Positions 477 through 41,580 of a stretch of DNA of 50,385 nucleotides are shown piece by piece; position 1 is the first letter of the stretch; every line of letters begins with the position of its first letter. A program made the position numbers and the translations under genes. The notes under the pieces are model-generated. The model was not told the origin of the DNA. It did no database searches and was given only the letters and a program-made list of their open reading frames with translations. The DNA lies in the NCBI GenBank assembly GCA_036401155.1, contig DASWVR010000096.1, forward strand, positions 1 through 50,385, written 5' to 3'. Source of the stretch: Piscinibacter sp. (lineage in GTDB: Bacteria > Pseudomonadota > Gammaproteobacteria > Burkholderiales > Burkholderiaceae_C).

Positions 477-737
477 TCAGGGTCCGAGGTCGCGGCGGCG
501 GCTACGCGAGTCTTCGTCCGAATCCGAGCGCGGCGATTCGATGCTGCCCGGGCTGCTCGATCGTCCGCTCTCGTCGGGGGCGGAATCGGCGCTGGGCTTG
601 CGCGTGGACGGCTCGCCCTCGGGGTGGTCCTTCGGACGGCGATCCTGGTGGTCGCCTTCGCGGGTGCGCGGTTCGCCGGTGCTGGCCATGCCCCCTTGCG
701 GCAGGCTCGATTCGGGCGGGGTCTTGGGCTGGGTCAT
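477..737 (-). CDS. Small hydrophilic hypothetical protein (86 aa, MTQPKTPPESSLPQGG...)
   Basis: GGAGG RBS before ATG at 737; sigma54 motif at 789-804; low-complexity charged composition. Confidence 0.6.
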   Translation of the reverse strand: MTQPKTPPESSLPQGGMASTGEPRTREGDHQDRRPKDHPEGEPSTRKPSADSAPDESGRSSSPGSIESPRSDSDEDSRSRRRDLGP

Positions 738-788
738 CGCAAGCCTCCTGTCGCGCGGCGCGAAAGTCGCCGCTCCTGCCCGCATATC

Positions 789-804
789 GGCAAGGGGCGT
801 GCCC
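789..804 (-). promoter_or_regulatory. sigma54 -24/-12 promoter
   Basis: gGGCACGCCCCTTGCc on minus strand (GG-N10-GC). Confidence 0.75.
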
Positions 805-812
805 TGCGGTCT

Positions 813-828
813 GGGCACGGTGGTTGCC
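813..828 (+). promoter_or_regulatory. sigma54 -24/-12 promoter
   Basis: gGGCACGGTGGTTGCc. Confidence 0.75.
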
Positions 829-876
829 GCTGGATTGGATTGGAGCGCCGCTCCGTTCACCAAAGGTGCCATCGCC

Positions 877-1122
877 ATGATCAGACAAGTCATCTCAGCC
901 GGGTTGTTCGCACTCACCGTGGGCACGCTGTGGTCCCTGAGCCGCCAGCTCAACCGCAAGCATTCGGAAGATGCCGCCAAGCGCCCGCATGCCCCGGTGC
1001 ATACCTGGGAAGGAGAGGGCGGAGCCCTGCCGGCCACTGGCCCGCAAATGGGTCCGGACCCGGTGGTGCCCGCTTCCACGGCGGCGGTCAAGCCGCAGAC
1101 GGTGCCGGGCAGCGTTCACTGA
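877..1122 (+). CDS. Small membrane-anchored hypothetical protein (81 aa, WEGEGG motif)
   Basis: AAAGG RBS, N-terminal hydrophobic stretch, upstream sigma54 motif. Confidence 0.65.
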   Translation: MIRQVISAGLFALTVGTLWSLSRQLNRKHSEDAAKRPHAPVHTWEGEGGALPATGPQMGPDPVVPASTAAVKPQTVPGSVH

Positions 1123-1171
1123 CGCGCGCGGGCTGGGATGCCATCGGCGACCGGTATCCCGGCGAGATGAT

Positions 1172-1242
1172 GTCATCCCGGCGAAAGCCGGGATCCATCG
1201 TCGCGCGAACGCGATCTGGATCCCGGCTTTCGCCGGGATGAC
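1172..1242. repeat. REP-like palindromic doublet (GTCATCCCGGCGAAAGCCGGGATCCA plus its reverse complement)
   Basis: 1172-1197 and 1217-1242 are exact reverse complements, each an internal hairpin; located between convergent genes; related copies at 49964-50040. Confidence 0.85.
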
Positions 1243-2160: not shown

Positions 2161-3327
2161 TCAAACCAGCGCGCGGTGCTCGGCGTCGTGGCGCTGGCTC
2201 TTGGGCTCGTCGCGCGCGAGCGGCAGCACGAGCACGAACTCGGCACCGAGCCCGGGCCCGTCGCTCGCCGCGCGGATGTCGCCGCCGTGCAGCTCGGCGA
2301 GCCGCTTGGCGATCGTCAGCCCCACGCCCAGCCCGTGGTTCGTGCGCGGCTTGCTGTGGGCCTCCTGCGCGAACGGCTCGAACACGCTGGGCAGGAAGTC
2401 GGGCGCAATGCCTTGGCCGTTGTCCTTGACGTGGATGTGCGCCGAGTCGCCGTCGGCATGCGCGCGAATCCGGATCTGGCCACCCGTGGGCGTGAACTTC
2501 GCCGCGTTGACCAGCAGGTGCGAGAGGGCCTGCGCGAGCCGCATCGGATCGCCGCAGACGGCCAGCGGCGCGTCGGGCAGCTCGACGTCCACCCGATGCT
2601 CGCGCGCGTCGATCTGCGGCTGCGCATTCTCGATCGCGTGGCGCACCAGGTCGCTCACCTCGACCCGTTCCTTCTGCAGTTCGAGCTTGGCCTGGGTGAT
2701 GCGCGTCACGTCGCGCATGTCGGCGATCACGCGGCGCAGCTGTTCCAGCTGGCGCTCGACGATCTGGCGCACCGGCGTGATGGCCGGCATCTGCTTCTCC
2801 ATCATCTTCAGGATGGCCGTCGCGTTGGCGATCGGCCCGAGCGGATTGCGCAGGTCGTGCGCCAGCATCGCGAGGAATTCGTCCTTGCGACGGTCGGCCA
2901 CGCGCAGGGCGCGCGTGCGCTCGGCCAGGCGCTCCTCCAGCTCCTTGCGCTCGTGGATGTCGATGCAGCTGCCGGTGTAGCCGTGGAAGCTGCCGTCCGA
3001 GGCGGTGCGCGGAACGCCGTTGGCGAGCACCCAGCGGTGGCTGCCGTCGTGCCGGCGCAGCCGGAAGTCCATCGTGAACGGCTGGCGTGCATCGAAGCTC
3101 GCGTTGAAGATGCCGCTGCAACGCTCAAGGTCTTCGGGGTGCACCCCGCTCAGCCAACCGCTGCCGAGTTCGTCGTCCATGGCGCGGCCGGTGAACTCCA
3201 GCCAGGGCCGGTTGACCCATTCGAACTGCTTGTCCACGCCGGCGACCCAGATCATCACCGGCGCTGAATCGGCCATCAGCCGGAAGCGGTCTTCGCTTTC
3301 GCGCTGCCGCGCATCGTTGCCTTGCAT
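2161..3327 (-). CDS. PAS/PAC sensor histidine kinase (no receiver)
   Basis: RFRLMADSAPVMIW PAS; H-box FLAMLAHDLRNPL; NAAKFT; DNGQGI; GLGVGL. Confidence 0.9.
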   Translation of the reverse strand: MQGNDARQRESEDRFRLMADSAPVMIWVAGVDKQFEWVNRPWLEFTGRAMDDELGSGWLSGVHPEDLERCSGIFNASFDARQPFTMDFRLRRHDGSHRWVLANGVPRTASDGSFHGYTGSCIDIHERKELEERLAERTRALRVADRRKDEFLAMLAHDLRNPLGPIANATAILKMMEKQMPAITPVRQIVERQLEQLRRVIADMRDVTRITQAKLELQKERVEVSDLVRHAIENAQPQIDAREHRVDVELPDAPLAVCGDPMRLAQALSHLLVNAAKFTPTGGQIRIRAHADGDSAHIHVKDNGQGIAPDFLPSVFEPFAQEAHSKPRTNHGLGVGLTIAKRLAELHGGDIRAASDGPGLGAEFVLVLPLARDEPKSQRHDAEHRALV

Positions 3328-3419: not shown

Positions 3420-3435
3420 GGCAATCCGCATGCCC
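3420..3435 (-). promoter_or_regulatory. sigma54 -24/-12 promoter
   Basis: gGGCATGCGGATTGCc on minus strand. Confidence 0.75.
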
Positions 3436-3448
3436 GAAGTCGGACCGG

Positions 3449-5341
3449 TCACGTCATCGCGGGCTGGCGCTGGCGCAGCAGCTGGACCAGGCTGTCGACG
3501 TCCACGGGCTTGACGAGATGCTGGTCGAAGCCCGCGTCGCGGGCGCGCTCGCGGTCCTTCTGCTGCCCCCAGCCGGTGATCGCGACAATCACCGCGTCGC
3601 AGGTGCTGCTCTGCCGGCGCAGGCGCTGCGCCACCTCGTAGCCGTTCATGCCCGGCATGCCGATGTCCAGAAAAATGTACTCCGGCCTCAGCCGGCCCGC
3701 CGCTTCGAGCGCGGCGAAGCCGTCGTGCACGACGGTCACCTCCTGTCCCAGCGATTCGAGGATGGCGAGCAGGCTGTTGGCGAAGTCGACGTTGTCGTCG
3801 GCGACCAGCACGCGGTGGCGCGGCACCGGCGACGCGAGCGGCGCGGGCGGCTCGGGGCGCACGGGCGGGAGTTCGCGCCGCGGCAGTCGCACGACGAACT
3901 CCGAGCCCTCGCCCAGGCCTTCGCTGTGCACGCTGATGTGTCCGCCGTGCAGCTCCACCAGCTGCTTGGCGAGTGTCAGACCCACGCCCAGCCCCTTGTT
4001 GACGCGCTCGAGCGACTGGTCGACCTGCACGAACATGTCGAAGATGCTGTCCTGCTTGTCCGGCGCGATGCCGACGCCGCTGTCGCTCACGTGCACCGCG
4101 ATCTCGTCGGCGGCTTCGGTCAGTCGCACCGCGATCCGGCCGCCCGCGTCGGTGTACTTCGAGGCGTTGTTGAGCAGGTTGGCGAACACCTGCGCCAGGC
4201 GCGTCGAGTCGCCGTGCACGAACAGCGGGCCGGGCGGCAGGTCGAGCGAGAGGAGATGGCCGTGCGCCTCGATGCCGGGCAGCGCGATCTCCACCGCGCT
4301 GTTGAGCACCGCGATCAGGTCGACGCGGCCGAGGTCGAGCAGCACCTTGCCGGTGGTGATGCGCGAGACGTCGAGCAGGTCGTCGATCAGCCGAACCATC
4401 TGCTGCACCTGGCGCGACATGATGTCGATGGCGCGCTGCTGGATCGCCGGCGGCGCCGATTGGCCGGCGCGGCGCAGGATCTCCAGCGCATTGGTGATGG
4501 GCGCGAGCGGGTTGCGCAGTTCGTGCGCCAGCGTGGCGAGGAACTGGTCCTTGGTGCGCGCCGCGGCGCGCAGGGCCTCTTCGGCGCGGCGGCGTTCGGC
4601 CATCTCGGCAGACAGGTGGTTGTTCGACTGCTCCAGCGCCTCCGTGCGCTTGGCCACTTCGTCGAGCATGTTGTTGAAGGCGTCGACCAGCACGCCGGCT
4701 TCGTCGGCGGTGGTCTTGGTGGCGCGCAGCGAGTAGTCGCGCCGCGACAGCACGTTGCGCGCGACCTGCGCGACTTGAAGAATCGGCTCGGTGACGCTGT
4801 CCTGCAGCCGGCGGCTGACGAGGGTGGCCACCAGCAGGCTCGGCAGCATCACGGCGGCCAGGATCAGCAGGTAGTCGATCAGGCGGCCGACGATGTCGTA
4901 GCGCGAGCGCAGGTAGACGCTGCCGATCACGGCCTCGCCATCGCGAATCGGCTGGAACACCTCGATCAGGTCTTGTTCGATCACCACCGACTGGTCGCGG
5001 CCCTGAGGCGGCAGCCCGCGCTCGCTGCCCGACGGGTGGAGATAGCTCGCGAACAGGCGTCCGTCGGCGCCGTAGACCGCCGCAGCCATGACCCGCGGGC
5101 GCAGCTCGAGCAGGGCGAGGTTCTCCGCCACCGGCTTCGGATCGTCGAAGGTCAGCGCCGGCACGCTCGTCTGCGCAATGATGCGGGCCTGGGTGTTGAG
5201 ATCGTCGAGCCACGACTTCTGGTAGCTGCGCAGCTCGTAGATCAGCAGTGCGGTGGCGCTGAGCAGCAGCGCCATGCAGGTGGTCGCCAGCACGACGACC
5301 GTCACCTTGCGGCGCAGGGAGTGGCTGCCCGCCTGGTTCAT
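3449..5341 (-). CDS. Membrane hybrid histidine kinase (periplasmic CHASE-like sensor, HAMP, HisKA, HATPase, receiver)
   Basis: Two TM segments, HAMP, FLATLAHELRNPL, NNASKYT, receiver VLVADDN...FLDIGMPG...HLVKPVD. Confidence 0.92.
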   Translation of the reverse strand: MNQAGSHSLRRKVTVVVLATTCMALLLSATALLIYELRSYQKSWLDDLNTQARIIAQTSVPALTFDDPKPVAENLALLELRPRVMAAAVYGADGRLFASYLHPSGSERGLPPQGRDQSVVIEQDLIEVFQPIRDGEAVIGSVYLRSRYDIVGRLIDYLLILAAVMLPSLLVATLVSRRLQDSVTEPILQVAQVARNVLSRRDYSLRATKTTADEAGVLVDAFNNMLDEVAKRTEALEQSNNHLSAEMAERRRAEEALRAAARTKDQFLATLAHELRNPLAPITNALEILRRAGQSAPPAIQQRAIDIMSRQVQQMVRLIDDLLDVSRITTGKVLLDLGRVDLIAVLNSAVEIALPGIEAHGHLLSLDLPPGPLFVHGDSTRLAQVFANLLNNASKYTDAGGRIAVRLTEAADEIAVHVSDSGVGIAPDKQDSIFDMFVQVDQSLERVNKGLGVGLTLAKQLVELHGGHISVHSEGLGEGSEFVVRLPRRELPPVRPEPPAPLASPVPRHRVLVADDNVDFANSLLAILESLGQEVTVVHDGFAALEAAGRLRPEYIFLDIGMPGMNGYEVAQRLRRQSSTCDAVIVAITGWGQQKDRERARDAGFDQHLVKPVDVDSLVQLLRQRQPAMT

Positions 5342-5620: not shown

Positions 5621-5636
5621 TGCAAGGCGCGTGCCG
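5621..5636 (-). promoter_or_regulatory. sigma54 -24/-12 promoter
   Basis: cGGCACGCGCCTTGCa on minus strand. Confidence 0.7.
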
Positions 5637-5649: not shown

Positions 5650-5665
5650 AGGCACGGCGCTTGCC
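5650..5665 (+). promoter_or_regulatory. sigma54 -24/-12 promoter
   Basis: aGGCACGGCGCTTGCc. Confidence 0.75.
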
Positions 5666-5679
5666 GCATCGAGACATCC

Positions 5680-7827
5680 ATGCACCTGCGCGCCATGTCC
5701 GAAGCTTCCCGCAACCGCTGGCGAAAGGCCTGGCCGCTCGCGGTCCTCGCCGGCGTCGTCCTTGCCGTGGGCGTGTGCGAGTGGCAGGGGTGGCCCTTTC
5801 TCAAGGGGCCGGTACAGAGCCGGCTGACGCAGCAGCTGCACCGGCAGGTGGAGTTCGGCGACAGCTTCCGGCTCAAGCTGTTCGGGTCGATCCGCCTCGA
5901 CACCGACGCGCTGCGCGTGGGAGCGCCCGGCGATCTGCCGGACGGCTCGCCGCTCGCCGGCGACCTTGTCAACGCCCGCGACGCCCACCTGGAGCTGCCC
6001 TACGGCACGCTGATGGGCCTGTGGCGGGGCCGCGACGAGGAGACGCCGCGCATCACTTCGCTGCGCTTCGGCGCGGTCGATGCGGCGCTCAAGCGACAGG
6101 CCGACGGCCGCGCCAACTGGACGCTCGTCGCGCCGCACCCCGACACGCCGAAGAAGGCGTTCGAATTGCCGCTGGTGGACGAACTGGTGGTCGAACGCGG
6201 GCGGCTGGTCTACGACGACGCGCTGACCAAGACCGCGCTCGAAGCGCAGGTCAGTACCAGCGAAGGCGAGGCGGTGGAGCAGGGCCAGCGGCGCGGCCTG
6301 CGGGTCGAAGGCCGCGGGCGTCGCGAAGGCCAGCCCTTCGAGTTTCGCGTCGCCTCGTCGGGCGTGCTGCCGCTGGTAGCGCGCGACGCGGTGGTGGCCG
6401 TGCCGCTCACCATCCGCGCGAATTCCGGCGACTCCCGCTTCAGCTTCGATGGCCAGGGCACCGACGTGCTGAGCTTTCACGCGCTTGACGGCGACGCGGC
6501 GCTCTCGGGCCCGTCGCTGGCGAAAGTCGGCGACGCGCTGGGCCTCACCCTGCCCACCACCGAGCCGTTCAAACTCAAGGGACGCCTGAGCAAGTCCGGG
6601 CAGCGTTGGGCGCTGAAGCAGGCCGCCCTGGACGTCGGCGACAGCCAGCTGGGCGGCGAGTTCAGCTACGACCGCGCGCCGAAGGTGCCGATGCTGAGCG
6701 GCCAGCTGGTCGGCTCGCGGCTGGTGCTTGCCGACCTGCTGCCGGCCTTCGGCGCGGCGCGCCCCGGCAGCGGCAACCCGAAGCCGCCGGCGGGCCATGT
6801 GGTGCCGCAGCGCGAGTTCGACATCCCCTCCCTGCACCGCATGAACGCCGACGTCAAGGTGCGGCTGCAGCGTGCGGAACTCGGCACGCTGTTCCGCCGG
6901 CCGCTCGCCCCGCTGCAGGGCGATCTGCGCCTCGACGGCGGCGTGCTCAAGCTCAGCAACCTCGTGGCGCGGACTTCGGGCGGCGAGATCAAGGGCGCGC
7001 TGGGCCTGGACGCGACCAACGCCCGGCAGCCGCTGTGGACGGCCGACGTGCGCTGGGCCGGCATCGAGCTCGACGAGTGGCTGCGCCCGCGCAACCCGAG
7101 CTCGCAGTCCGGCAAGCCTCGGGGGGAACAGCCGGGCTACGTGACCGGCAAGCTGGGCGGCCACGCCAAGCTGCAGGCGCACGGCCGTTCGACGGCGAAG
7201 ATGATCGGCAGCACCGACGGCACCGTGCAGGCGTGGGTACGCGATGGCACGATCTCGCACCTGGTGGTCGAAGCCGCCGGTCTCGACCTCGCTCAGGGCC
7301 TGGGCCTGATGATCGTCGGCGACGACCCGCTGCCGATGTACTGCGCGGCAGTCAAGGCGAACGCACGCAACGGCGTGCTCACCCCCGAGGTGGCGATCGT
7401 CGACACCCGCGACTCGACGCTGTTCGCGAGCGGCACCGTGTCGCTCGGCGACGAACGCATGGACCTCAAACTGACCTCCAGACCGAAGGACATGAGCCCG
7501 GCGACCCTGCGCTCGCCGGTGCATGTGTCGGGCACCTTCAGCCAGCCGCAGTTCAAGCTCGAGAAGCAGCCGATGGCAGCGCGGTTGCTGGGCGCGGCGG
7601 TGCTGGCGGCGGTGCATCCGCTGGCGGCGCTGATCCCGCTGTTCGACCCCGGCGACAAGGAGTCGGCCGGAGGCTGCCAGCGTGCGCTGCAGCGGCTGCG
7701 CGATGCCGACGGCCCGGCCGGCGCACGCGACGCGCGGGCACCGCGCTCGACCGACAAGAACCTGCCGCCGGAGCGCGAACCGCGCCGCCAGGCGGAAGCG
7801 CCCGAGCCGGCGCCGGTGCGCAAGTGA
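5680..7827 (+). CDS. AsmA-family protein (YhjG-like)
   Basis: N-terminal TM anchor, DGRANW motif, beta-rich repeats, C-terminal LRSPVHVSGTFSQP...LAALIPL; start 5680 or 5695. Confidence 0.85.
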   Translation: MHLRAMSEASRNRWRKAWPLAVLAGVVLAVGVCEWQGWPFLKGPVQSRLTQQLHRQVEFGDSFRLKLFGSIRLDTDALRVGAPGDLPDGSPLAGDLVNARDAHLELPYGTLMGLWRGRDEETPRITSLRFGAVDAALKRQADGRANWTLVAPHPDTPKKAFELPLVDELVVERGRLVYDDALTKTALEAQVSTSEGEAVEQGQRRGLRVEGRGRREGQPFEFRVASSGVLPLVARDAVVAVPLTIRANSGDSRFSFDGQGTDVLSFHALDGDAALSGPSLAKVGDALGLTLPTTEPFKLKGRLSKSGQRWALKQAALDVGDSQLGGEFSYDRAPKVPMLSGQLVGSRLVLADLLPAFGAARPGSGNPKPPAGHVVPQREFDIPSLHRMNADVKVRLQRAELGTLFRRPLAPLQGDLRLDGGVLKLSNLVARTSGGEIKGALGLDATNARQPLWTADVRWAGIELDEWLRPRNPSSQSGKPRGEQPGYVTGKLGGHAKLQAHGRSTAKMIGSTDGTVQAWVRDGTISHLVVEAAGLDLAQGLGLMIVGDDPLPMYCAAVKANARNGVLTPEVAIVDTRDSTLFASGTVSLGDERMDLKLTSRPKDMSPATLRSPVHVSGTFSQPQFKLEKQPMAARLLGAAVLAAVHPLAALIPLFDPGDKESAGGCQRALQRLRDADGPAGARDARAPRSTDKNLPPEREPRRQAEAPEPAPVRK

Positions 7828-8126
7828 CGCTGAATCCGGATCTGGTCGGCTGGGCGAGCGCCGCCTTGCTGCTCGCGACCATCGTCAAGCAGGTCGTCAC
7901 GCAATGGAAGACCGGCAGCACCGCCGGCGTCTCGAAGTGGCTGTTCGCCGGCCAGACGCTCGCCTCGCTGGGCTTTGCGGTCTACAGCGCCATGACGGGC
8001 AACATGGTGTTCCTGACCGTCAACCTGGCGCTGCTGGTGAGCGCCATCGCCGGCCAGCTGATCTATTGGCGCAACAAGCGGCGCGAGGCGGCGGCGCCGC
8101 CGGCGCGCTGCGAGCCCGCGCGCTGA
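7824..8126 (+). CDS. PQ-loop/SemiSWEET-like small membrane protein
   Basis: GTGA overlap with asmA stop; three hydrophobic helices; TAGVSKWLF. Confidence 0.75.
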   Translation: MTLNPDLVGWASAALLLATIVKQVVTQWKTGSTAGVSKWLFAGQTLASLGFAVYSAMTGNMVFLTVNLALLVSAIAGQLIYWRNKRREAAAPPARCEPAR

Positions 8127-32945: not shown

Positions 32946-32961
32946 AGGCACCCGATTTGCC
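32946..32961 (+). promoter_or_regulatory. sigma54 -24/-12 promoter
   Basis: aGGCACCCGATTTGCc. Confidence 0.8.
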
Positions 32962-33006
32962 CGCCCACGGGTGTGCGATCTGCACGTTCAACCGAAGGAG
33001 TCTTCA

Positions 33007-33294
33007 ATGAACGATCAATCACGTCGAAATCAACCCCAGCAGCCGCAAGACCAGCAACGCCAGCAGGAGCAGGCGAGCACCAATCGGCCCAGCACCAAGC
33101 GCGATCAGGGCGGTCAGGCCAGCGAATCCGGCCAGCGTTCCCGCCAGAGCCGTGAGAGCGGCATGAATCGGCAAAGCGGCAGCAGCGATTCGCAATCCGG
33201 GCGTTCGAGTGCCGGCGAATCGTCACGTTCGCAACAGGGCGGCTCGCAAAGCAACCGCAGCCTGCGTTCGGACGACGAGAGCAGCCTCGACTGA
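33007..33294 (+). CDS. Gln/Ser/Arg-rich disordered hydrophilin (95 aa)
   Basis: AAGGAG RBS; promoter upstream and terminator downstream. Confidence 0.75.
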   Translation: MNDQSRRNQPQQPQDQQRQQEQASTNRPSTKRDQGGQASESGQRSRQSRESGMNRQSGSSDSQSGRSSAGESSRSQQGGSQSNRSLRSDDESSLD

Positions 33295-33378: not shown

Positions 33379-33693
33379 TCAGCGCGAAGAGGCGATCTTG
33401 CTCAGCACGACACCGGCGAGCACGCCGATGGCCAGCGCGGTGAGCGGGTTCTCGCGCACGTAGCCGCGCGCGTTCTCGACCCACTGCTCCTCGATCTCGC
33501 CGAACGCGTCGGCCTTGGCGCGCAGCGTTTCCGCGGTATGGGTGGTTGTGCCGCGCAGGCGCTCGACGGCCGGCCCGGCTTTCGAGGCCAGGCGGTCGAT
33601 CGCTTCGTGCGCGGACTGCGCCACACGATCGACCGTGCTGAGCGTGCGCTCGGCTGCGGCGTCGGCGGCGTTTTCGGTGGTAATGGTATCCAT
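33379..33693 (-). CDS. DUF883/ElaB/YqjD-family membrane-anchored protein
   Basis: C-terminal YVRENPLTALAIGVLAGVVL; AGGAGG RBS. Confidence 0.88.
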   Translation of the reverse strand: MDTITTENAADAAAERTLSTVDRVAQSAHEAIDRLASKAGPAVERLRGTTTHTAETLRAKADAFGEIEEQWVENARGYVRENPLTALAIGVLAGVVLSKIASSR

Positions 33694-33780
33694 GGGGCCT
33701 CCTGATGGCGATCCAACAAAGGTTCCGCCGCCCACGCTGGCGAGGGCGGCGGAGTTCATTTCAACACGCTTCCGGGACGC

Positions 33781-34050
33781 TCAGCGCACCCTGCCGCGAC
33801 GGAACAGGTTCACGATCCCCAGCAGCACGATGGCGCCGAGCAGCGAGACCACGAACGAGCCGACGCTGAAGCCGGTATTGATGCTCGGGACGCCCACCAA
33901 CGGAGAGATCAGCCAGCCGGCGACCGCGGCACCGACGATGCCGACCACCACGTTCAGGATGACACCTTGTTGTGCGTCCGTCCGCATGATCATGCTGGCG
34001 ATCCAGCCTACCAAACCGCCAACTACCAGCCACACGATGAAGTTGATCAT
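33781..34050 (-). CDS. GlsB/YeaQ/YmgE stress-response membrane protein
   Basis: WLVVGGLVGWIAS...NVVVGIVGA...SLLGAIVLL; AAGGA RBS. Confidence 0.93.
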   Translation of the reverse strand: MINFIVWLVVGGLVGWIASMIMRTDAQQGVILNVVVGIVGAAVAGWLISPLVGVPSINTGFSVGSFVVSLLGAIVLLGIVNLFRRGRVR

Positions 34051-34128
34051 GGAAGTGGTCCTTTCATTGAATGAATCGAAGGAAAGCCGGCCACCACCAC
34101 AGAACGGCAACTGGCCTCGCCACCTCTC

Positions 34129-34144
34129 GGCAAATGGCATGCCG
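34129..34144 (-). promoter_or_regulatory. sigma54 -24/-12 promoter
   Basis: cGGCATGCCATTTGCc on minus strand. Confidence 0.8.
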
Positions 34145-34358: not shown

Positions 34359-34374
34359 GGGCACGGCGCTTGCG
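34359..34374 (+). promoter_or_regulatory. sigma54 -24/-12 promoter
   Basis: gGGCACGGCGCTTGCg. Confidence 0.8.
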
Positions 34375-34416: not shown

Positions 34417-36114
34417 ATGAGGCCAACACCCAAGGACACCGAGCCCCGAGCCCCCCGGCGGCGCGCGCCGTCGAAAAAAGCGGGGGCACGGGCCAGCGCA
34501 TCGACGCCGGACTCCGAAGGGGAGGCCCTGCTCGGTGAAAGCCATTTCCGACGCTTTGCGGAAAGCAGCGACGACGTCTTCTGGCTGGCCGACCTCGACA
34601 GTGGCCGCCTGCTCTACGTGAGTCCGCGTGTCGAGGCCCTGTGGGGCGTCGACGCCGGCACCCTGCTGCGCGAGCCCTCGCGCTGGGCCGACGCCGTGCT
34701 CGAAGACGACGCCGCGCAACTGCCCGATCCCTTCTTTGCCGACGATCCCGCGTGCGAAGAGAGCGTGCGCGAGTACCGCATCCGTTCGCGCAGCGGCGAA
34801 GTGCGCTGGATCCGCGACCGGCGCTTTCGCGTCGTCGGCACCGACGGCGACTCGCCTCGCATCGGCGGTATCGCCGAGGACGTGACCGAGCGCAAGTGGC
34901 GCGAGATCGAATGTGCCGAGTTGCTGCAGCGCGAACGCGAGGCGCGTTCGGACGCCGAGGCGGTGGCGCTGGCCAAGGACGAATTCCTGGCCGTCGTCAC
35001 GCACGAGCTGCGCTCGCCGCTGAACGCCATCCGCGGCTGGGCGCACGTGCTGCGACACAGCGCCGAGCTGCAGCCGGCCCAGATCCGCGCGCTCGACGCG
35101 ATCGACCGCAACACACAGGCGCAGGCGAACCTCGTCGACGACCTGCTCGACAGCCAGCGCATCCTGTGCGGCAAGCTCGAACTCGAGCGCGCCCGCGTGC
35201 AGCTGGCCGCCGTGATCGAGGAGGCGGCCGAAGCGGTGCGGCCGGCGGCGCAGGCCAAGCGCATCCGCCTGGAGCTATCGCACGACCCGGCGCTCGGCAT
35301 CGTCAACGTGGACCCCGACCGCTTGCGCCAAGCGCTGCTCAAGCTGCTCTCCAACGCCGTCAAGTTCACGCCCGAAGACGGCATCGTGAGCGTGTGCAGC
35401 CGCCATCACGCCGACGGCGTCGCGATCGACGTGCACGACACCGGCGCCGGCCTCGAGCTGTCGCAGCTGCCGCTGATGTTCGACCGCTTCCAGCAGGGCG
35501 ACAGTTCGCGCACCCGGCGCGCGAGCGGGCTCGGGCTCGGCTTGTCCCTGGCGCAGCAGCTCATCGAGCTGCACGGCGGCAGCATCCGCGTCGACAGCGC
35601 CGGCGTCGGCCGCGGCTCGACCTTCACGGTCGAACTGCCCCGCGATGCCTTGTGCGACACGCGGCAGGCGCCGGACGATCCCGCCGCACCCGCGTCGCTC
35701 GCCGGCAAGCGGGTCGTCATCGTCGAGGACGACGACGACGGCCGGGAGGTACTGGGCCTGATCCTGCGCGGTGCGCAGATCGAGCTGCACAGCTTCAGCC
35801 GCGCGGCCGCCGCCTACGACTACCTCGCGCACGCGCCGCCGCACGAGCAGCCCGACGCGCTGATCTCCGACATCGCGATGCCCGATGAAGACGGCTACCA
35901 GTTCATCCGCCGCGTGCGCGAGATGGAGGGAGGACAGCACCGTCCGCGCACCGTGGCGCTTGCGCTGACCTCCTTTGCCCGGGTGGAGGATCGGCTGCGG
36001 GCGTTGAAGGCGGGCTTCGATGCGCACGTCGCCAAGCCGATCGATCCCGAGCGGGTGCTGCGCACGCTGGCGGAGATCCTGCGCCTGACGTCCGGCGAGC
36101 GCGCGCCGGCCTGA
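34417..36114 (+). CDS. Cytoplasmic PAS hybrid histidine kinase
   Basis: PAS/PAC (GEVRWIRD, EDVTERK), THELRSPL, NAVKFT, receiver ISDIAMP...HVAKP. Confidence 0.92.
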   Translation: MRPTPKDTEPRAPRRRAPSKKAGARASASTPDSEGEALLGESHFRRFAESSDDVFWLADLDSGRLLYVSPRVEALWGVDAGTLLREPSRWADAVLEDDAAQLPDPFFADDPACEESVREYRIRSRSGEVRWIRDRRFRVVGTDGDSPRIGGIAEDVTERKWREIECAELLQREREARSDAEAVALAKDEFLAVVTHELRSPLNAIRGWAHVLRHSAELQPAQIRALDAIDRNTQAQANLVDDLLDSQRILCGKLELERARVQLAAVIEEAAEAVRPAAQAKRIRLELSHDPALGIVNVDPDRLRQALLKLLSNAVKFTPEDGIVSVCSRHHADGVAIDVHDTGAGLELSQLPLMFDRFQQGDSSRTRRASGLGLGLSLAQQLIELHGGSIRVDSAGVGRGSTFTVELPRDALCDTRQAPDDPAAPASLAGKRVVIVEDDDDGREVLGLILRGAQIELHSFSRAAAAYDYLAHAPPHEQPDALISDIAMPDEDGYQFIRRVREMEGGQHRPRTVALALTSFARVEDRLRALKAGFDAHVAKPIDPERVLRTLAEILRLTSGERAPA

Positions 36115-36119: not shown

Positions 36120-36491
36120 TCAGGCCGCGCAGTCGTCGAGGAAACTCTCGATCACCGACGGGTCCACCGGCTTGACCAGGTGGGCGTCGAAGCCGGCCTG
36201 GGCGGTCTTTTCGCGGTCGCCGGGTTGGCCATAGCCCGTCAACGCCGCGATCACGATGTCGCGTCCGAAGGGCGTCGAGCGCAAGGCCTTGGCGACCTCG
36301 TAGCCGCTCATGCCCGGCAGGCCGAGATCGCAGAAAACGATCTCGGGCCGAAAGTCCTCCGCCAGCGCCAGCCCACGCGCGCCATCGCCGGCGATGCGGG
36401 CGTCGTGTCCCGACAGCGCCAGCAACTGGGCCAGCGATTCGGCGGCATCGATGTTGTCATCGATCAGCAGCACCCGACGGGCTGTGCTCAT
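36120..36491 (-). CDS. Single-domain response regulator
   Basis: VLLIDDN, FCDLGLPGMSG, ALTGYG, HLVKPVD; GGAG RBS. Confidence 0.92.
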   Translation of the reverse strand: MSTARRVLLIDDNIDAAESLAQLLALSGHDARIAGDGARGLALAEDFRPEIVFCDLGLPGMSGYEVAKALRSTPFGRDIVIAALTGYGQPGDREKTAQAGFDAHLVKPVDPSVIESFLDDCAA

Positions 36492-36541: not shown

Positions 36542-36557
36542 TGCAAGCGGAGTGCCG
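36542..36557 (-). promoter_or_regulatory. sigma54 -24/-12 promoter
   Basis: cGGCACTCCGCTTGCa on minus strand. Confidence 0.8.
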
Positions 36558-36762: not shown

Positions 36763-36778
36763 TGGTACAGCCTTTGCT
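36763..36778 (+). promoter_or_regulatory. sigma54 -24/-12 promoter of candidate sRNA
   Basis: tGGTACAGCCTTTGCt. Confidence 0.7.
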
Positions 36779-36788
36779 CTAGAGCGTT

Positions 36789-36968
36789 CAGGAGTGGCCA
36801 GCGCGCGTCGGTCCACCAGACGCCCTGCGCGAACCCTCCGCCCGTTTTTCCGGCTCGAGCATCCAACTGCGGCGCTCCTCCCCCCTTCCTCCCGACTCAT
36901 TGGGCGACGTGGGCTCGAGACGGTGTTTTTTCACCAGCAAAAGGGCCGCGCACTGCGCGGCCCTTTCT
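36789..36968 (+). ncRNA. Candidate sigma54-dependent small RNA with CU-rich anti-SD motif
   Basis: Promoter motif upstream, terminator hairpin at end, no credible ORF, CTCCTCCCCCTTCCTCCC tract. Confidence 0.5.
36939..36968. terminator. Bidirectional intrinsic terminator
   Basis: AAAAGGGCCGCGCA-CT-GCGCGGCCCTTTCT. Confidence 0.85.
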
Positions 36969-37033
36969 GCTTTCTGGTCTGCGGCGTCTGCGACGCCGCC
37001 CCGCGCGAGCGTGAGGCGGCGAGCAGGCCTCGC

Positions 37034-37549
37034 TCAGCGGTAGACGTCTTCGGCGCGGTACTCCTTCCAGGTGCGCTCGAAGTGGTCGGCGTCTTCGGCC
37101 GAGCGCGGCTTCACGCCCATCAGGATGCCGCCTTCCTTCACGCCTTGCTCGTAGCGCTTGACGCGCTCTTCCGGGATGCCCCAGCCGATCAGCGCGCCGA
37201 CGAGGCCGCCGGTGGCAGCGCCTGCACCCGCGCCCGCCAGTGCTGCCGCGACCGGGCCCGCCACCACGAGGCCGAGGCCCGGGATCGCGATGCTGGTTCC
37301 CACCGCGGCGATGGCCGCGGCGATGGCACCCAGCGTGCCGCCGATGGCGCCGCCGATGCCGGCACCCTCCGCGGCCTTGCTTCCGAGCTCGGTTTCTTCG
37401 CCGACGGCGAAGTGGCGCTTGCGCGTGTCGTCGGACATGACGAGGTTCACGTCGTCGCGGTTGTAGCCGCGTTCGGTCACCGATTGGTAGGCGCGTTCCG
37501 CGCTGTCGCGGTCGCGGAAGAGGCCGGTCACCATGGGCGATTCAGTCAT
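37034..37549 (-). CDS. General-stress-protein-like glycine-zipper membrane protein
   Basis: GLFRDRDSAERA...GSKAAEGAGIGG...IPGLG...GIPEE..KRYE; AGGAG RBS. Confidence 0.85.
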   Translation of the reverse strand: MTESPMVTGLFRDRDSAERAYQSVTERGYNRDDVNLVMSDDTRKRHFAVGEETELGSKAAEGAGIGGAIGGTLGAIAAAIAAVGTSIAIPGLGLVVAGPVAAALAGAGAGAATGGLVGALIGWGIPEERVKRYEQGVKEGGILMGVKPRSAEDADHFERTWKEYRAEDVYR

Positions 37550-37628
37550 CTCGTTCTCCTGTGAAGTTGCAAAGGGATGGACTGCTCCGCCATGGCGGGA
37601 TCACGCAGTGACCCATCTGCGCCAACGA

Positions 37629-37644
37629 GGCAAACGCGGGGCCC
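37629..37644 (-). promoter_or_regulatory. Possible sigma54 promoter
   Basis: gGGCCCCGCGTTTGCc on minus strand. Confidence 0.55.
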
Positions 37645-37763: not shown

Positions 37764-37779
37764 GGGCCTGCGATTTGCC
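37764..37779 (+). promoter_or_regulatory. sigma54 -24/-12 promoter
   Basis: gGGCCTGCGATTTGCc. Confidence 0.65.
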
Positions 37780-37842
37780 GTGGGAGCGCAGAGGCCGACG
37801 CAGGTCTCGCACATCCACTGGCAGCACTGAAAGGATCGAGAC

Positions 37843-38028
37843 ATGAACAAGGACCAGCTGAAGGGCCGCACCGAGCAGGCCAAGGGCAAGATCAAGGAAG
37901 AGACCGGCGAGCTGACCGGCAACGCAAGCCTCGAAGGCGAAGGCAAGGCCCAGAAGACGACGGGCAAGGCGCAGGCGAAGGTGGGCGATGCCAAGGAGAA
38001 GGTCAAGCGCGGCATCGACAAGATCTGA
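37843..38028 (+). CDS. csbD: CsbD-family general stress protein
   Basis: MNKDQLKGRTEQAKGKIKEETGELTGN..LEGEG. Confidence 0.95.
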   Translation: MNKDQLKGRTEQAKGKIKEETGELTGNASLEGEGKAQKTTGKAQAKVGDAKEKVKRGIDKI

Positions 38029-38040
38029 TCGGCCTCCTCC

Positions 38041-38196
38041 TTGAGAGCCCACACCCCGGCCCCCGAGCCGCAGCCCAAGCCTGAGCCCTTGCTGCCGCCG
38101 AGGCCGCCGGGTGTGGACGATCCGCCGGCACCGGGCCAGGACCCGGTGCCGCCGGTGCGCGAGCCGCCGGTGATGCCGACGCCGGTGATGCACTGA
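38041..38196 (+). CDS. Possible proline-rich peptide (51 aa)
   Basis: Open frame filling the gap between csbD and the next gene, CCG-biased Pro codons; TTG start lacks an SD. Confidence 0.35.
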   Translation: MRAHTPAPEPQPKPEPLLPPRPPGVDDPPAPGQDPVPPVREPPVMPTPVMH

Positions 38197-38215
38197 CGGA
38201 CACAAAGGAATCGCC

Positions 38216-38539
38216 ATGCCCAAGTCATGGAGCGCCAAGCGAGAGCGCCAGTACGAGCACATCAAGGAAGGCCTCGTCGAGCGAGGCAAGGACAAGGACG
38301 TCGCCGAAGAGATCGCCGCACGCACCGTCAACAAGGAACGCGCGCAGCACGGCGAGGCCAAGCAGGCGAGCCGCACCTCCATCGAGGACATGCCGGCCAG
38401 CCGGCGTGGCGGGCTGCACTCGCACGGCGGCGAGCGCGGGCGCACCTACGAGCAGCTGTACCACGAGGCGCAGGAAAAGGGCATCAAGGGACGCTCGTCG
38501 ATGAGCAAGGCCGAGCTGGAACAGCGGCTCAGCCACTGA
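38216..38539 (+). CDS. Conserved small basic protein (often labelled plasmid stabilization protein; Rho-N-like C-terminus)
   Basis: KRERQYEHIK...IAARTVNKERA...IKGRSSMSKAEL; AAGGA RBS. Confidence 0.85.
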   Translation: MPKSWSAKRERQYEHIKEGLVERGKDKDVAEEIAARTVNKERAQHGEAKQASRTSIEDMPASRRGGLHSHGGERGRTYEQLYHEAQEKGIKGRSSMSKAELEQRLSH

Positions 38540-38551
38540 CCGGGACGCAAG

Positions 38552-38581
38552 GACGAACGGCAGCCGCGGCTGCCGTTCGTC
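38552..38581. terminator. Perfect 30-bp palindrome between convergent genes
   Basis: GACGAACGGCAGCCG/CGGCTGCCGTTCGTC. Confidence 0.65.
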
Positions 38582-38619
38582 GCGTCTTGGCCGAGCCTCG
38601 CGGCTCGACCCGATCTCGC

Positions 38620-39102
38620 TTACCAGCGCTGCAGCTGGCCGTCCTGCACGCGAACGCGGTCGCCCACGCGCAGGCCGTTGATATCGGCGTAGTCGAAGTT
38701 GCGCACATCGCCGTTGTCCATCTGCACCTGCACCTGGTAGTAGACCGACGGCGCATTGCGGCCTTCTTCGATCTTGTTGCCCACCACCGCGCCGCCGACG
38801 GCGCCGATGGCGGTGGCTGCGGCCCGGCCGCTGCCCGAACCCACCTGGTTGCCGGCCACGCCGCCGATCACCGCGCCGAGCAGGGCGCCTGCGCCGGACG
38901 AGCGGCGCGCCGTTTCCTGCTGCTGGATGTTGCGCACGTAGCCGTACTGGACCGCTTCGTTCGAGCTGGTCGTCGACGGATAGGTGGAGGTGGTGCCGAC
39001 GCTGCCGTAGGTCGGCGCCGGGTCATTGCGCACTGACGAGCAGCCCGCCGCGAGGGCGAGGGTCGAAGCGAGCGCGGTGATGGTGATCAGCTTGCGTGTC
39101 AT
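38620..39102 (-). CDS. Glycine-zipper 2TM outer-membrane lipoprotein (SlyB-like)
   Basis: Lipobox AAGC; GALLGAVIGGVAGNQVGSGSGR; LRVGDRV; AAGGAG RBS. Confidence 0.9.
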   Translation of the reverse strand: MTRKLITITALASTLALAAGCSSVRNDPAPTYGSVGTTSTYPSTTSSNEAVQYGYVRNIQQQETARRSSGAGALLGAVIGGVAGNQVGSGSGRAAATAIGAVGGAVVGNKIEEGRNAPSVYYQVQVQMDNGDVRNFDYADINGLRVGDRVRVQDGQLQRW

Positions 39103-39280
39103 GTTGTGAACTCCTTTTGCCTGACATGGCGGTGAAAGCCACCGTCGCTTGCGATGGGGCGGCACACCATGCTGCAAGGACTGCCGGGCAAGCGCTGCCG
39201 GCCAGTGCCGAAAGCGGGGTCGGTGGGCGTCGCGTTCCTCTGTGCGGATTGGCCTACAAGCGCGACGGGGGGAGGATCGG

Positions 39281-39296
39281 CGGCACGCCGATTGCT
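39281..39296 (+). promoter_or_regulatory. sigma54 -24/-12 promoter
   Basis: cGGCACGCCGATTGCt. Confidence 0.8.
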
Positions 39297-39351
39297 TTAC
39301 GGGAACGTCTATCTCGCGTTCCCCCGGCGCGCCTGTGACGTGGAGAACCGA

Positions 39352-41580
39352 GTGCAGGAACAACCCGACGCTGCCGCCGAGCCCATCCGACCGGGCAGCC
39401 ACGTCGTTCAGTTCTACAAGGAAGACCATCTGCTGCTCGACGAGGTCGTCGACTTCGTCGACGGCGCACTGCGCGCGGGCGATGCCGGTCTCGTCATCGC
39501 CACCCAGGCGCATCTGGCGGAGATCGAGCGGCGTCTGCAGGGCATGCGTCTGGCGGTGGGCGCGCCATTGTGGTACCCGGGCGAGTTCATCGGCCTCGAT
39601 GCCGCACGCACGCTCGCGCAGTTCATGACCGAGGGCTGGCCGGACGAGGAGCGCTTCACCAGCGTCGTCGGCGACGTCATCGCGCGCGCTTCCAACGGCG
39701 GACAGCGCGGCGTGCGTGCTTTCGGCGAGATGGTCGCGCTGCTGTGCGCGGCCGGCAACCATGCCGCGGCCATCCGGCTCGAAGAGCTGTGGTGCGAACT
39801 CGGCCGCCATCAGGCGTTTTCGCTCTTCTGCGCCTACCCGCTGAACCTGTTCACCAAGCCCGACGACGCCCGCGCGCCCGCGCCCGGGAGCGACAGCCGC
39901 GCGCCCGTGGCGCCGACCGGCGCAGCCCCGATCGCGAACGCACATGGGGACACGCGCACCGCGACCCTCGCCGAGCTGCAGCACAAGGCAGCGGTGCTCG
40001 AAGTCGAAGTGGCCAAACGCACCCAGGCCGAGCAGACGCTGCGCCGGCGCGAGAAGGAACTGGCCGACTTTCTCGAGAACGCCGCCGAAGGACTCAACCG
40101 CATCGGCGCCGATGGCCGCATCGTGTGGGCCAACCGCGCCGAACTCGAACTGCTGGGCTACGAGCCGCACGACTACATCGGGCAGCCGGCGGCGTGTTTT
40201 CACGCCGACCCCGATGCGGGATGCCGGTTCGTCGAACGGCTGCTCGGCGGCGACGTGCTATACAACGAGCCCGCGGTGCTGCGCTGCCGCGACGGCACGC
40301 TCAGGCACGTGCTCGTGCATGCGAGCCTCGTCGGCGACAACGGCGGGCCGCGCTCGGCGCGCTGCTTCACGCGCGACGTGACCGAGCAGGTGCGCGCCCG
40401 CGAGGTTCTGGAGACGGCGCACGGCGAGCGCACGCGGCTGCTGGAGAAGCTCGAAACGGCGAACCGCGCGAAGGACGAATTCCTCGCCATGCTGGGCCAC
40501 GAGCTGCGCAACCCCCTGTCGCCGATCGTCACCGCGCTGCAGCTGATGAAGATGCGCGGCGACTCGCAGACGGCACGCGAGCAGGCCATCATCCAGCGCC
40601 AGGTCGACCACCTGACCCGACTCGTCGACGACCTGCTCGACATCTCCAAGCTCACGCGCGGCAAGATCCAGCTGCACATGGAAACGGTCGAGATCGGCGA
40701 GGTGCTGAACAAGGCGGTGGAAATGGCCGGCGTGCTGCTGGAGCAGCGGCAGCATCGGCTCGTCGTGCATGTTCCCGGCCGCGGCATGCGCTGGCACGGC
40801 GACCCCGTGCGGCTGGCTCAGGTGGTGTCCAACCTGCTGACCAACGCGGCGCGCTACACACCGATCGGCGGCGAGGTGCGCCTGAGCGCCTTTCGCGACA
40901 CATCGCAGGTGACGATCAGCGTGCGGGACAACGGCTGCGGCATCGCGCCGCACATGCTGTCGCGCGTGTTCGATCTCTTCGTGCAGGGCGAGCGCGGCGT
41001 CGACCGTGCGGAAGGCGGGCTGGGGATCGGCCTTGCGTTGGTGAAAAGCCTGGTCGGGATGCACGGCGGCACAGTGGCGGTGAAGAGCGAGGGCGTCGGC
41101 CGCGGCAGCGAGTTCATCGTCCGGCTGCCGCTGCAATGCACGGCGGCGGTCGCGACGCATGCGTCGATCGCCGCCGCCCCAGCGGCGCAGCGCCAGCGCG
41201 TGCTGGTGGTCGACGACAACGCCGACGCGGCCGACATGCTGGGCCTGGCGCTGCGTGCGCAAGGCCACGAGGTCGTGGTCGCACACGATCCGATCACGGC
41301 GCTGAAGTCGCTCGACGGCTTCACGCCCGACGTGGCCGTGCTCGACATCGGCCTGCCGGTCATGGACGGCTACGAACTCGCGGCGCGGTTGCGCGAGCGC
41401 TTGGGCGAGGGGCGTTGCCGCCTGTACGCGCTCACGGGCTACGGCCTGGAGTCCGACCGCATGCGCAGCAAGGCCGCGGGCTTCGACCTGCATCTCGTCA
41501 AGCCGGTCAACATCGACCGGTTGTTGGCGCTCGTCGACGAGGCAGCGCACGTCCCGCAGGGCCGAGAGCCTGCGCGGTAG
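39352..41580 (+). CDS. MEDS-PAS hybrid histidine kinase
   Basis: MEDS (HVVQFY, RAFGEMV, LEELW, LFCAYP), PAS, GHELRNPL, NAARYT, receiver LDIGLPVMDG. Confidence 0.92.
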   Translation: MQEQPDAAAEPIRPGSHVVQFYKEDHLLLDEVVDFVDGALRAGDAGLVIATQAHLAEIERRLQGMRLAVGAPLWYPGEFIGLDAARTLAQFMTEGWPDEERFTSVVGDVIARASNGGQRGVRAFGEMVALLCAAGNHAAAIRLEELWCELGRHQAFSLFCAYPLNLFTKPDDARAPAPGSDSRAPVAPTGAAPIANAHGDTRTATLAELQHKAAVLEVEVAKRTQAEQTLRRREKELADFLENAAEGLNRIGADGRIVWANRAELELLGYEPHDYIGQPAACFHADPDAGCRFVERLLGGDVLYNEPAVLRCRDGTLRHVLVHASLVGDNGGPRSARCFTRDVTEQVRAREVLETAHGERTRLLEKLETANRAKDEFLAMLGHELRNPLSPIVTALQLMKMRGDSQTAREQAIIQRQVDHLTRLVDDLLDISKLTRGKIQLHMETVEIGEVLNKAVEMAGVLLEQRQHRLVVHVPGRGMRWHGDPVRLAQVVSNLLTNAARYTPIGGEVRLSAFRDTSQVTISVRDNGCGIAPHMLSRVFDLFVQGERGVDRAEGGLGIGLALVKSLVGMHGGTVAVKSEGVGRGSEFIVRLPLQCTAAVATHASIAAAPAAQRQRVLVVDDNADAADMLGLALRAQGHEVVVAHDPITALKSLDGFTPDVAVLDIGLPVMDGYELAARLRERLGEGRCRLYALTGYGLESDRMRSKAAGFDLHLVKPVNIDRLLALVDEAAHVPQGREPAR

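Follow-up and report, generated by a model that had tools for sequence, protein, structure and literature searches.

The contig DASWVR010000096.1 of a Piscinibacter sp. genome (assembly GCA_036401155.1; 3.97 Mb, 74.5% complete), 50,385 bp long and analyzed in full as the window (contig C96 in our numbering), carries a gene cluster in which a second sigma-54 gene, rpoN2, stands together with activators and about 40 survival-type genes. This cluster is a real, conserved sigma-54 regulon hub. The promoter boxes of its cargo genes are biased toward a C directly after the conserved GC (C-type boxes), and the bias is absent from the promoter of rpoN2 itself. The explanation that best accounts for these patterns, and that we consider probable, is a cascade in which the housekeeping sigma factor RpoN1 would feed RpoN2, with the promoters of the two told apart by a single base.

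The original prediction for this DNA had described 28 intergenic GG-N10-GC motifs, each facing a neighboring gene, operon or candidate RNA. The genome was scanned with the fixed textbook sigma-54 consensus, GGCAC-N5-TTGC. The same motif is printed in PMC4371752. Of the exact matches, 11 fell into the window's 9,441 intergenic bp and 44 into the 626,058 intergenic bp of the remaining genome, or 1.17 versus 0.07 per kb, and with at most one mismatch the counts were 29 and 275 (Poisson p ~1e-10 and ~1e-15, respectively). Coding DNA held no excess of consensus matches. A plain search of the whole window at two mismatches was not significant (81 versus 65.8 expected), which indicates that the signal is intergenic, and intergenic counts were used instead. 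A matrix trained on relatives only, and blind to the base after the GC, was run over the intergenic DNA of the island (6.9 kb). It recovered 27 boxes at 12 bits, 29 at 10 bits and 31 at 8 bits, where shuffled sequence gave 0.6, 1.7 and 3.1. The number 28 is therefore correct within the choice of threshold. At 12 bits the density was 3.9 per kb in the island and 0.23 in the rest of the genome, a 17-fold difference, so that the genome-wide matrix scan proposed at the time sets the island clearly apart from background. The orientation held as well: 30 of 31 boxes point at a called gene, mostly from 30–130 nt upstream, and the remaining one (36763–36777, + strand) lies ahead of a conserved structured candidate RNA with a terminator. 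Several promoters stand back to back with gaps of 0–35 bp, among which no fixed spacing was found. The boxes combine the GG-N10-GC core with CAC and TT flanks, an intergenic position and a gene-facing orientation, and in these terms are predicted sigma-54 promoters. In the relatives, at least 1.5 boxes per intergenic kb were present in 23 of 30 rpoN2 loci.

Gene calls came from a dicodon model fitted to the host genome, and annotation from Pfam and NCBIfam. The predicted rpoN paralogue, NtrC-type activator, four kinases (three of them hybrid) and two single receivers are all present, and the regulators keep their catalytic motifs. The regulatory features are as follows.

8144–9610, − strand: rpoN2, sigma-54 paralogue of 488 amino acids (aa) with the RpoN box ARRTVTKYRQ; Pfam AID, CBD and DBD domains, NF009118 above cut-off.
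9705–9719, − strand: sigma-54 box of rpoN2 itself, with T ahead of GG and G behind GC as in the RpoN1 type; kept in orthologues.
9915–9937, − strand: conserved, imperfect inverted repeat, a candidate enhancer that shows as an alignment footprint some 200 bp ahead of the rpoN2 box.
12466–13905, + strand: activator EBP1, receiver–AAA+–Fis helix-turn-helix (HTH) with a GSFTGA loop and an aspartate phosphorylation-site motif; box 12332–12346.
43937–45358, + strand: second activator EBP2, same GSFTGA clade, beyond the range of the original prediction.
2161–3327, − strand: PAS histidine kinase; C-type box 3421–3435.
3449–5341, − strand: CHASE8–HAMP hybrid kinase; box 5622–5636, A after GC, 281 nt upstream.
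34417–36114, + strand: PAS hybrid kinase; box 34359–34373, G after GC.
39352–41580, + strand: MEDS–PAS hybrid kinase; box 39281–39295, T after GC.
27056–27478, − strand: single-domain receiver RR1, downstream of an M48 protease gene.
36120–36491, − strand: single-domain receiver RR2; box 36543–36557, A after GC.
36763–36972, + strand: box 36763–36777 (T after GC), followed by a candidate small RNA (sRNA) some 180 nt long, whose loop is rich in C and whose terminator lies at 36940–36966.

The host genome has two rpoN copies, of which rpoN2 is the second; rpoN1 comes directly after an ABC gene that we take to be of the lptB type. Region I, the core-binding domain, the HTH and the RpoN box of RpoN2 are intact. 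When 200 family genomes were searched with the window RpoN2, 31 gave a match of at least 469 bits, the next score being 393, and 30 rpoN2 loci were taken from 28 of these 31 positive genomes, with poorer gene calls in the low-GC loci. Trees were built by a quick method and with FastTree. RpoN1 (21 rows) separated from RpoN2 with a support of 100, and the family's 31 RpoN2 rows form a 99-support group in the quick tree. A branch with a support of 99 puts the second copies of Ralstonia and Burkholderia on the same side as RpoN2, outside the 31-member group, in a tree that holds no RpoN1 of these two genera and in which E. coli forms a long branch. By sequence, RpoN2 has the marks of a specialized paralogue, a second copy off the housekeeping locus with a clade of its own. 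Kinases, activators, PA2169, topoisomerase IB, YihY, hemerythrins and cardiolipin synthase recur among its loci in relatives, with the order changing from locus to locus. Three genomes (G145, G026 and G183) have two RpoN2-clade members each, plus RpoN1.

The base after the GC is named −11 in the Rhodobacter literature and −12 in structural papers. In the cargo boxes of the 30 rpoN2 loci it is C in 173 of 233 cases (T 30, G 16, A 14), and C is the majority base in 19 of the 23 loci that have at least four boxes; after an intergenic TTGC, the background frequency of C is 30%. Within the window, C follows the GC in 18 of 30 boxes. Directly before rpoN2, C was found in 1 of 31 boxes of a first set and in 0 of 71 of a second, partly overlapping set (75 of 80 loci examined, 4 of them without a box). 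In the same genomes, boxes of the glnK–amtB operon ended in C in 0 of 22 cases (30 loci; two weak C boxes ahead of an unrelated gene were excluded), and those in the loci of other activators did so in 5 of 40 (five genomes, 60 regions, in which 62 of their 74 activator matches lie), versus 5 of 6 beside GSFTGA activators. Ordinary sigma-54 targets pooled gave 5 of 62, and in the host genome A or G is the final base of the box at the likely target of every activator outside the island. Boxes ending in T are shared by the two sets, and both sigma factors may read them. Among the 30 best loci of the cargo gene PA2169, a box was present in 15 of the 21 from RpoN2-positive genomes (12 ending in C, 3 in T) and in 0 of 9 from negative ones; beyond the training loci, the counts were 5 of 11 versus 0 of 9.

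Residues were compared in E. coli numbering between 21 RpoN1 and 31 RpoN2 sequences. From RpoN1 to RpoN2, Region I changes from L to Q at L13 (25 of 31), from Q to R at Q18, from S to A at A22 and from I to V at I23 (31 of 31 each). In the long helix, F is replaced by T at L329 (28 of 31) and K by R at K331 (26 of 31), and in the RpoN box A is replaced by T at A459 (31 of 31). The Ralstonia and Burkholderia copies, whose loci show no C bias, have none of Q16, A25, T337 and E342 of the window RpoN2. In E. coli sigma-54, the template base after the GC flips into a pocket of Region I and the long helix; only A:T or T:A at this position gave robust transcription, C:G or G:C being poorly active, and a template G occurs at the flipped position in 8% of promoters (PMC10083551). 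The next base is contacted by Q18, L19 and K331 (PMC9770992). A link between the RpoN2 substitutions and the choice of base can only be inferred, since the pocket residues are unchanged and local RpoN1-type boxes often end in G. Within the RpoN2 clade, the C fraction per locus, compared by eye, did not track residue variation.

Co-occurrence was counted in a panel of 80 genomes, 32 RpoN2-positive and 48 negative (hand-chosen, mostly large and complete). It is important to note that kin genomes are not independent, and the counts are therefore descriptions rather than tests. An EBP1 orthologue of at least 450 bits was present in 32 of 32 RpoN2-positive genomes versus 2 of 48 negative ones, plus one partial match. 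The corresponding numbers were 26 of 32 versus 14 of 48 for PA2169 and 29 of 32 versus 35 of 48 for CsbD. Among 18 activators detected near rpoN2, 17 have the GSFTGA loop, and they form one 99-support clade. EBP1 has the features of an NtrC-type activator (receiver with its aspartate site, AAA+ domain with a GxFTGA loop, Fis HTH) and reaches the cut-off of none of the named NCBIfam activators listed, which indicates that it is not NtrC itself. Judged from co-occurrence and neighborhood, RpoN2 appears to have its own activator, and the dedicated sigma-54 paralogue of the original prediction is borne out as a distinct clade that co-occurs with a distinct activator clade. A third GSFTGA activator of the host genome follows ligD–ku (L280, G000:C119); near it, a C-type box precedes a receiver gene. 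Remnant islands with the activator and without rpoN2 were seen in three genomes (L259–L264 in G039, G088 and G033). The activator and PA2169 appear split in G033, and the island in G088 includes a gene, presumably manganese-catalase-like, that has no box.

Activator and sigma factor could also share the work differently. Both sigma-54s might read the boxes, with specificity supplied by the GSFTGA activator, the C merely raising the melting barrier, the genes silent until strong activation and RpoN2 adding capacity. We regard this as unlikely, although RpoN1 and RpoN2 do not differ in the side chains lining the pocket, the RpoN2 proteins of Ralstonia and Burkholderia partly complement other rpoN mutants (PMC4676750, PMC4745423), and the effects of activator and RpoN2 are hard to separate because the two almost always occur together. 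In the three genomes that combine the activator (one partial) with a single rpoN, the exact boxes nearby end in A, A, A, G and C, that is, in C in just 1 of 5 (11 boxes in all, 3 ending in C). The Ralstonia locus has a GSFTGA activator yet no C bias, and the bias goes with membership in the RpoN2 clade of 31 and with the residues fixed in it.

Several observations weigh against the cascade and its one-base code. The pocket-lining residues W328, T339, H377, T380, L19 and L26 (E. coli numbering) are the same in the family's RpoN1 and RpoN2, and at the pocket positions S332 and S335 both paralogues have N and Q. The E. coli rule is not simply transferable, because local RpoN1-type boxes often end in G, which is disfavored in E. 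coli. The rpoN2 loci of Ralstonia (0 of 8) and Burkholderia multivorans (4 of 16) lack the C bias. The p values are overstated, because the rpoN2 and amtB controls each represent one orthologous promoter and the genomes are kin. C-type strings counted genome-wide, partly in coding DNA, have a median of 4.0 per Mb in RpoN2-negative and 5.8 per Mb in positive genomes, only a moderate split; these counts are inflated by G162, in which an identical C-type string, probably a repeat element, occurs at least 8 times (C1, 1.99–2.14 Mb). Kinase and receiver boxes of relatives (C in 13 of 20) differ non-significantly from cargo boxes (170 of 209; p 0.14), and the split into tiers is therefore robust for rpoN2 alone. 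An association of sigma-54 boxes with stress cargo, as originally predicted, holds for PA2169 and did not extend to CsbD, in whose 30 best loci a box was found in 1 of 8 from RpoN2-positive versus 0 of 22 from negative genomes. No shared activator site was established for the cargo promoters. Finally, the host genome has rpoS.

Simpler rules were also considered and set aside. A division into regulators with RpoN1-type boxes and effectors with C-type boxes is true in the window; in relatives it was not significant after removal of rpoN2. A T before the GG was weaker as a second class marker (present in 2 of 30 window boxes and in 27 of 40 boxes close to other activators; association p 0.006). 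For a shared cargo enhancer, dyad counts were confounded by facing boxes and motif fitting by coding DNA, and an intergenic-only count yielded only weak words, such as GTAA-N4-TGC, in 7–9 genomes. The short gaps between back-to-back promoters leave little space for an enhancer upstream of them.

The cascade from RpoN1 to RpoN2 would begin with transcription of rpoN2 by RpoN1 from its non-C box, a step with outside support, in that expression of Ralstonia rpoN2 is abolished in an rpoN1 mutant (PMC4371752). The kinases, with their PAS, CHASE8 and MEDS inputs, would phosphorylate EBP1, EBP2 or the third activator, and the single receivers may serve as relays or sinks. As the base bias suggests, the RpoN2 holoenzyme would open C-type promoters in the cluster and genome-wide, and the C after the GC would shut RpoN1 out. 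To judge by the cargo, the cell would accumulate solutes, catalase and hydrophilic proteins and alter its membrane and envelope. The output, including trehalose synthase, catalase, cardiolipin, hemerythrins, small hydrophilic proteins and topoisomerase IB, may protect against drying, oxidation and starvation. The katE gene of the host genome has a C-type box, and a Burkholderia rpoN2 mutant has less katE (PMC4745423).

The predicted regulon extends far beyond the window. Outside the contig, 102 oriented boxes of at least 12 bits were found (C 60, T 26, G 13, A 3), for which 49 target genes and 16 neighbors were annotated. C-type boxes precede genes for a long katE-type catalase, a GT20 trehalose-phosphate synthase (otsA), two phospholipase-D/cardiolipin synthases, FtsH, a DksA-type finger protein, a KaiC-like protein, RecQ and PEP-CTERM proteins, and T-type boxes precede genes for BON and CBS proteins. 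At L288 (G000:C74:24144–32846), a 2,900-aa GH94 cyclic-glucan-synthase-type gene stands behind a C-type box. The cluster is likely the control center and about a quarter of the predicted survival regulon. The boxes, the dedicated paralogue and the cargo of the original prediction are upheld, and its closed system is not, given the 102 boxes off the contig, a third activator by ku–ligD and an RpoN1-type rpoN2 promoter.

The same holds for the view that sigma-54 stands in for RpoS, SigB or EcfG. rpoS is above its family cut-off in the host genome and in 23 of the 32 RpoN2-positive genomes, and in none of the other 9. That RpoN2 replaces a missing RpoS is ruled out for the host genome, where rpoS lies elsewhere, without a sigma-54 box; neither SigB nor PhyR was found above cut-off in the 74.5% of the genome at hand. 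RpoS may act in parallel. That RpoS or another sigma-70 factor is the main driver, the sigma-54 boxes being secondary or relics, seems highly improbable to us. The wide presence of rpoS would agree with it, as would the lack of boxes at PA2169 and CsbD in RpoN2-negative genomes and the link of Burkholderia katE to RpoS as well (PMC4745423). The boxes, however, are kept while flanking DNA diverges, relics would not hold a position-specific base bias across genera, and 9 of 32 RpoN2-positive genomes have no rpoS above cut-off.

The cargo families named in the original prediction are typical of RpoS, SigB or EcfG regulons. Detection in the window was firm for CsbD, GlsB/YeaQ (PF04226), PA2169 (TIGR02284, above cut-off) and YihY; the HPF-like protein was weak, DUF883/ElaB gave only a weak C-terminal match (E 0.002) and the cardiolipin synthase fell below the ClsB cut-off. 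The cargo features are listed here.

477–1122: two small divergent genes, both in Albitalea terrae; C-type boxes back to back, 790–804 (−) and 813–827 (+).
1373–1905, − strand: small hydrophilic protein; C-type box 1891–1905.
5650–8126, + strand: C-type box, AsmA-family gene, MtN3-like small membrane protein.
10128–12242, + strand: C-type box, hemerythrin-domain protein (PA2171-like, below cut-off), GT4 glycosyltransferase.
14041–15167, − strand: YihY/BrkB membrane protein; box 15153–15167, T after GC.
15442–18931, + strand: C-type box, small open reading frame (ORF), cardiolipin synthase; box 17183–17197 (T), GT4, PAP2.
18836–20922, − strand: C-type box 20908–20922, GT4, DUF2334.
20946–23358, + strand: C-type box, PA2169/DUF2383, DUF4142 lipoprotein, topoisomerase IB.
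23988–24922: HPF-like gene (−; box 24681–24695, 328 nt away) and small ORF (+; box 24696–24710), both C type.
25004–27017, − strand: two hemerythrin-domain genes (boxes 25627–25641, A, and 27003–27017, C), short M48 peptidase.
27510–29082, − strand: BepA-like M48 protease; box 29068–29082 (T).
29166–32328, − strand: C-type box 32314–32328, GmhB-like phosphatase, two GT9 glycosyltransferases.
32453–33294: two divergent low-complexity hydrophilic proteins, 32453–32863 (−) and 33007–33294 (+), with no family match below E 0.07; C-type boxes 32896–32910 and 32946–32960.
33379–34144, − strand: C-type box 34130–34144, GlsB/YeaQ (33781–34050), ElaB-like (33379–33693, weak DUF883_C).
37034–37644, − strand: YflT-like protein (weak, E 0.002); C-type box 37630–37644.
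37764–38539, + strand: weak C-type box (9.8 bits), CsbD (37843–38028), 107-aa conserved protein.
38620–39102, − strand: glycine-zipper lipoprotein, no box found.

The 107-aa protein (38216–38539) is 85% identical in Albitalea terrae, and its look-alikes in the Atlas are mostly actinobacterial clusters without a common Pfam family.

This inventory bears on what the regulon is for. A regulon driven by RpoN2 might serve differentiation or dormancy, with envelope and lipid remodeling in resting cells or biofilm, rather than broad cross-protection. Envelope cargo is indeed plentiful (three GT4, two GT9, a GmhB-like phosphatase, cardiolipin synthases, AsmA and a BepA-like protease, and also PEP-CTERM proteins and a penicillin-binding protein). 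Dormancy is suggested by the HPF-like gene and by hemerythrins of the PA2171 type, and Ralstonia rpoN2 is induced in minimal medium (PMC4371752). Set against this are the boxes at katE, otsA, BON and CBS genes, ku–ligD beside the third activator, and a Burkholderia locus with Ku, LigD, TreY and DUF892. We hold a dormancy role in place of stress protection to be rather improbable, though the two readings overlap.

Two elements may add further control. The inverted repeat upstream of the rpoN2 box, a candidate enhancer, is matched by its pattern in 20 of 75 rpoN2 upstream regions and is itself the best match in the genome to that pattern, which was not found before cargo boxes. The only other strong match (G000:C261:2711–2733) lies between genes that we take to be hpf-like and ptsN-like. 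Between the candidate enhancer and the rpoN2 box, no site resembling what we take to be the integration host factor motif was found. The candidate sRNA has a fold z of −3.3 and a terminator, is present in 12 of 15 same-genus genomes and keeps its box in 10 of 10 aligned copies. A model built from it matches 4 genomes of two genera, including two genomes of one further genus, and no Rfam family matched at threshold. Covariation gave no support because the core stem is nearly invariant. The C-rich loop could pair with ribosome-binding sites, and the RNA presumably resembles known C-rich-loop sRNAs. The three weak matches of the model, among them L305 and L306 (in G154 and G135), apparently belong to another RNA, alike across two genera, that combines a terminator with a long loop rich in C and U.

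The closest cultured relative among the RpoN2 matches is Albitalea terrae (87% identity), which indicates that the host is a betaproteobacterium of the Piscinibacter/Albitalea type, in agreement with the betaproteobacterial origin proposed before. The GC content of the cluster (0.701) is close to that of the genome (0.695), no tRNA was found in the cluster, and no integrase was found among 65 window ORFs scanned with Pfam. At an identity of at least 45%, 30 of 45 genes match in the same order in 80 kb of Albitalea terrae, and the synteny check suggested for this region thus returned a colinear gene order. With genome-like composition, without tRNA or integrase, and colinear in a relative, the cluster is old and not a recent mobile island: a mobile genomic island would be expected to show an integrase, a tRNA anchor, atypical GC and lost synteny, and the cluster shows none of these.

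Other features of the window lie at or beyond the edges of the cluster or between its genes. The C-terminal end of a class II fumarate hydratase gene occupies 34–453, and in 4 of the 30 relatives a fumC is found no more than 20 kb from rpoN2. A 17-bp unit occurs seven times (91% match) at 1234–1354, beside palindromic repeat-like DNA and between two small genes. DUF6502 and DUF5666 genes at 41857–43886 separate the island from the second activator, and no sigma-54 box was found there. A manganese (yybP–ykoY) riboswitch (45970–46154, − strand, 83 bits) lies ahead of a GDT1-family transporter gene.

More generally, the role of rpoN2 in betaproteobacteria is poorly defined in print (PMC4371752, PMC4745423). 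For a single genome, the analysis predicts a regulon of about 130 promoters, together with the activator clade that partners RpoN2, one candidate each for an enhancer and an sRNA, and a promoter rule of one base. The RpoN2 clade would be a natural variant for the structural question of how the flipped base that starts DNA melting is captured, as E. coli accepts A:T pairs only (PMC10083551). Sigma-54 scans that require A or T after the GC, such as that of PMC4371752, would miss C-type promoters. If true, the code would provide an orthogonal sigma-54/promoter pair for synthetic circuits. A literature search, to which subscription journals and supplementary target lists were mostly out of scope, found no description of the regulon, promoter base or activator clade of RpoN2.

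Among known systems, the megaplasmid rpoN2 of Ralstonia solanacearum (RSp1671, with activators RSp1667/1668; PMC4371752, PMC4676750) lies on the same side of the tree, with a support of 99. Like the cluster, it has a YihY/BrkB neighbor, a GSFTGA activator next to it whose AAA domain shares 72% identity with that of EBP1, and an ordinary box before rpoN2, which in Ralstonia depends on rpoN1 (PMC4371752). It differs in an identity of 47%, a position outside the 31-member clade without Q16, A25, T337 and E342, and few boxes, none of 8 ending in C. The cited passages call the role of Ralstonia rpoN2 enigmatic and give no regulon (PMC4371752, PMC4676750). In B. multivorans (NZ_CP020399), an rpoN gene lies in a block with BON, DUF892, DUF4142, PRC-barrel, Ku, LigD and TreY genes and 16 intergenic boxes; these differ from the boxes here in ending mostly in G or T (4 of 16 in C). 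The katE link also recalls B. pseudomallei RpoN2, whose orthology with the B. multivorans copy is assumed only and for which the passages of PMC4745423 give one target, katE. The RpoN1, RpoN2 and RpoN3 paralogues of Rhodobacter (Cereibacter) sphaeroides work with their own activators, NifA, FleQ and AprX, as is likely here, and, according to work cited in PMC11999139, PMC4676750 and PMC3162934, distinguish their promoters by the base that follows the GC. They differ in being alphaproteobacterial and serving nitrogen fixation and flagella, and the passages cited describe no cascade from one paralogue to another. A plasmid RpoN of Bradyrhizobium is loosely tied to stress genes (PMC13207237).

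RpoS, SigB and EcfG–PhyR differ in that the sigma factor of the island is a sigma-54 and not a master regulator of the sigma-70 family, and its promoters are of the sigma-54 type, needing an ATP-driven activator. The likeness lies in overlapping cargo (CsbD, GlsB/YeaQ, ElaB-like, katE, otsA, cardiolipin synthase, Ku/LigD), which we take to be shared with those regulons. In the EcfG response, several kinases and single-domain receivers feed one switch, an arrangement similar to the one predicted for the cluster. Beside these three systems, we tentatively propose a fourth stress wiring, which is plausible rather than probable: a sigma-54 to sigma-54 cascade in which a rebuilt RpoN2 pocket would open a base pair that E. 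coli cannot, and one base would insulate about 100 promoters. The cascade would be fed by a multi-kinase network with its own sRNA and, in the 9 of 32 lineages where no rpoS was detected, would be the only stress switch.

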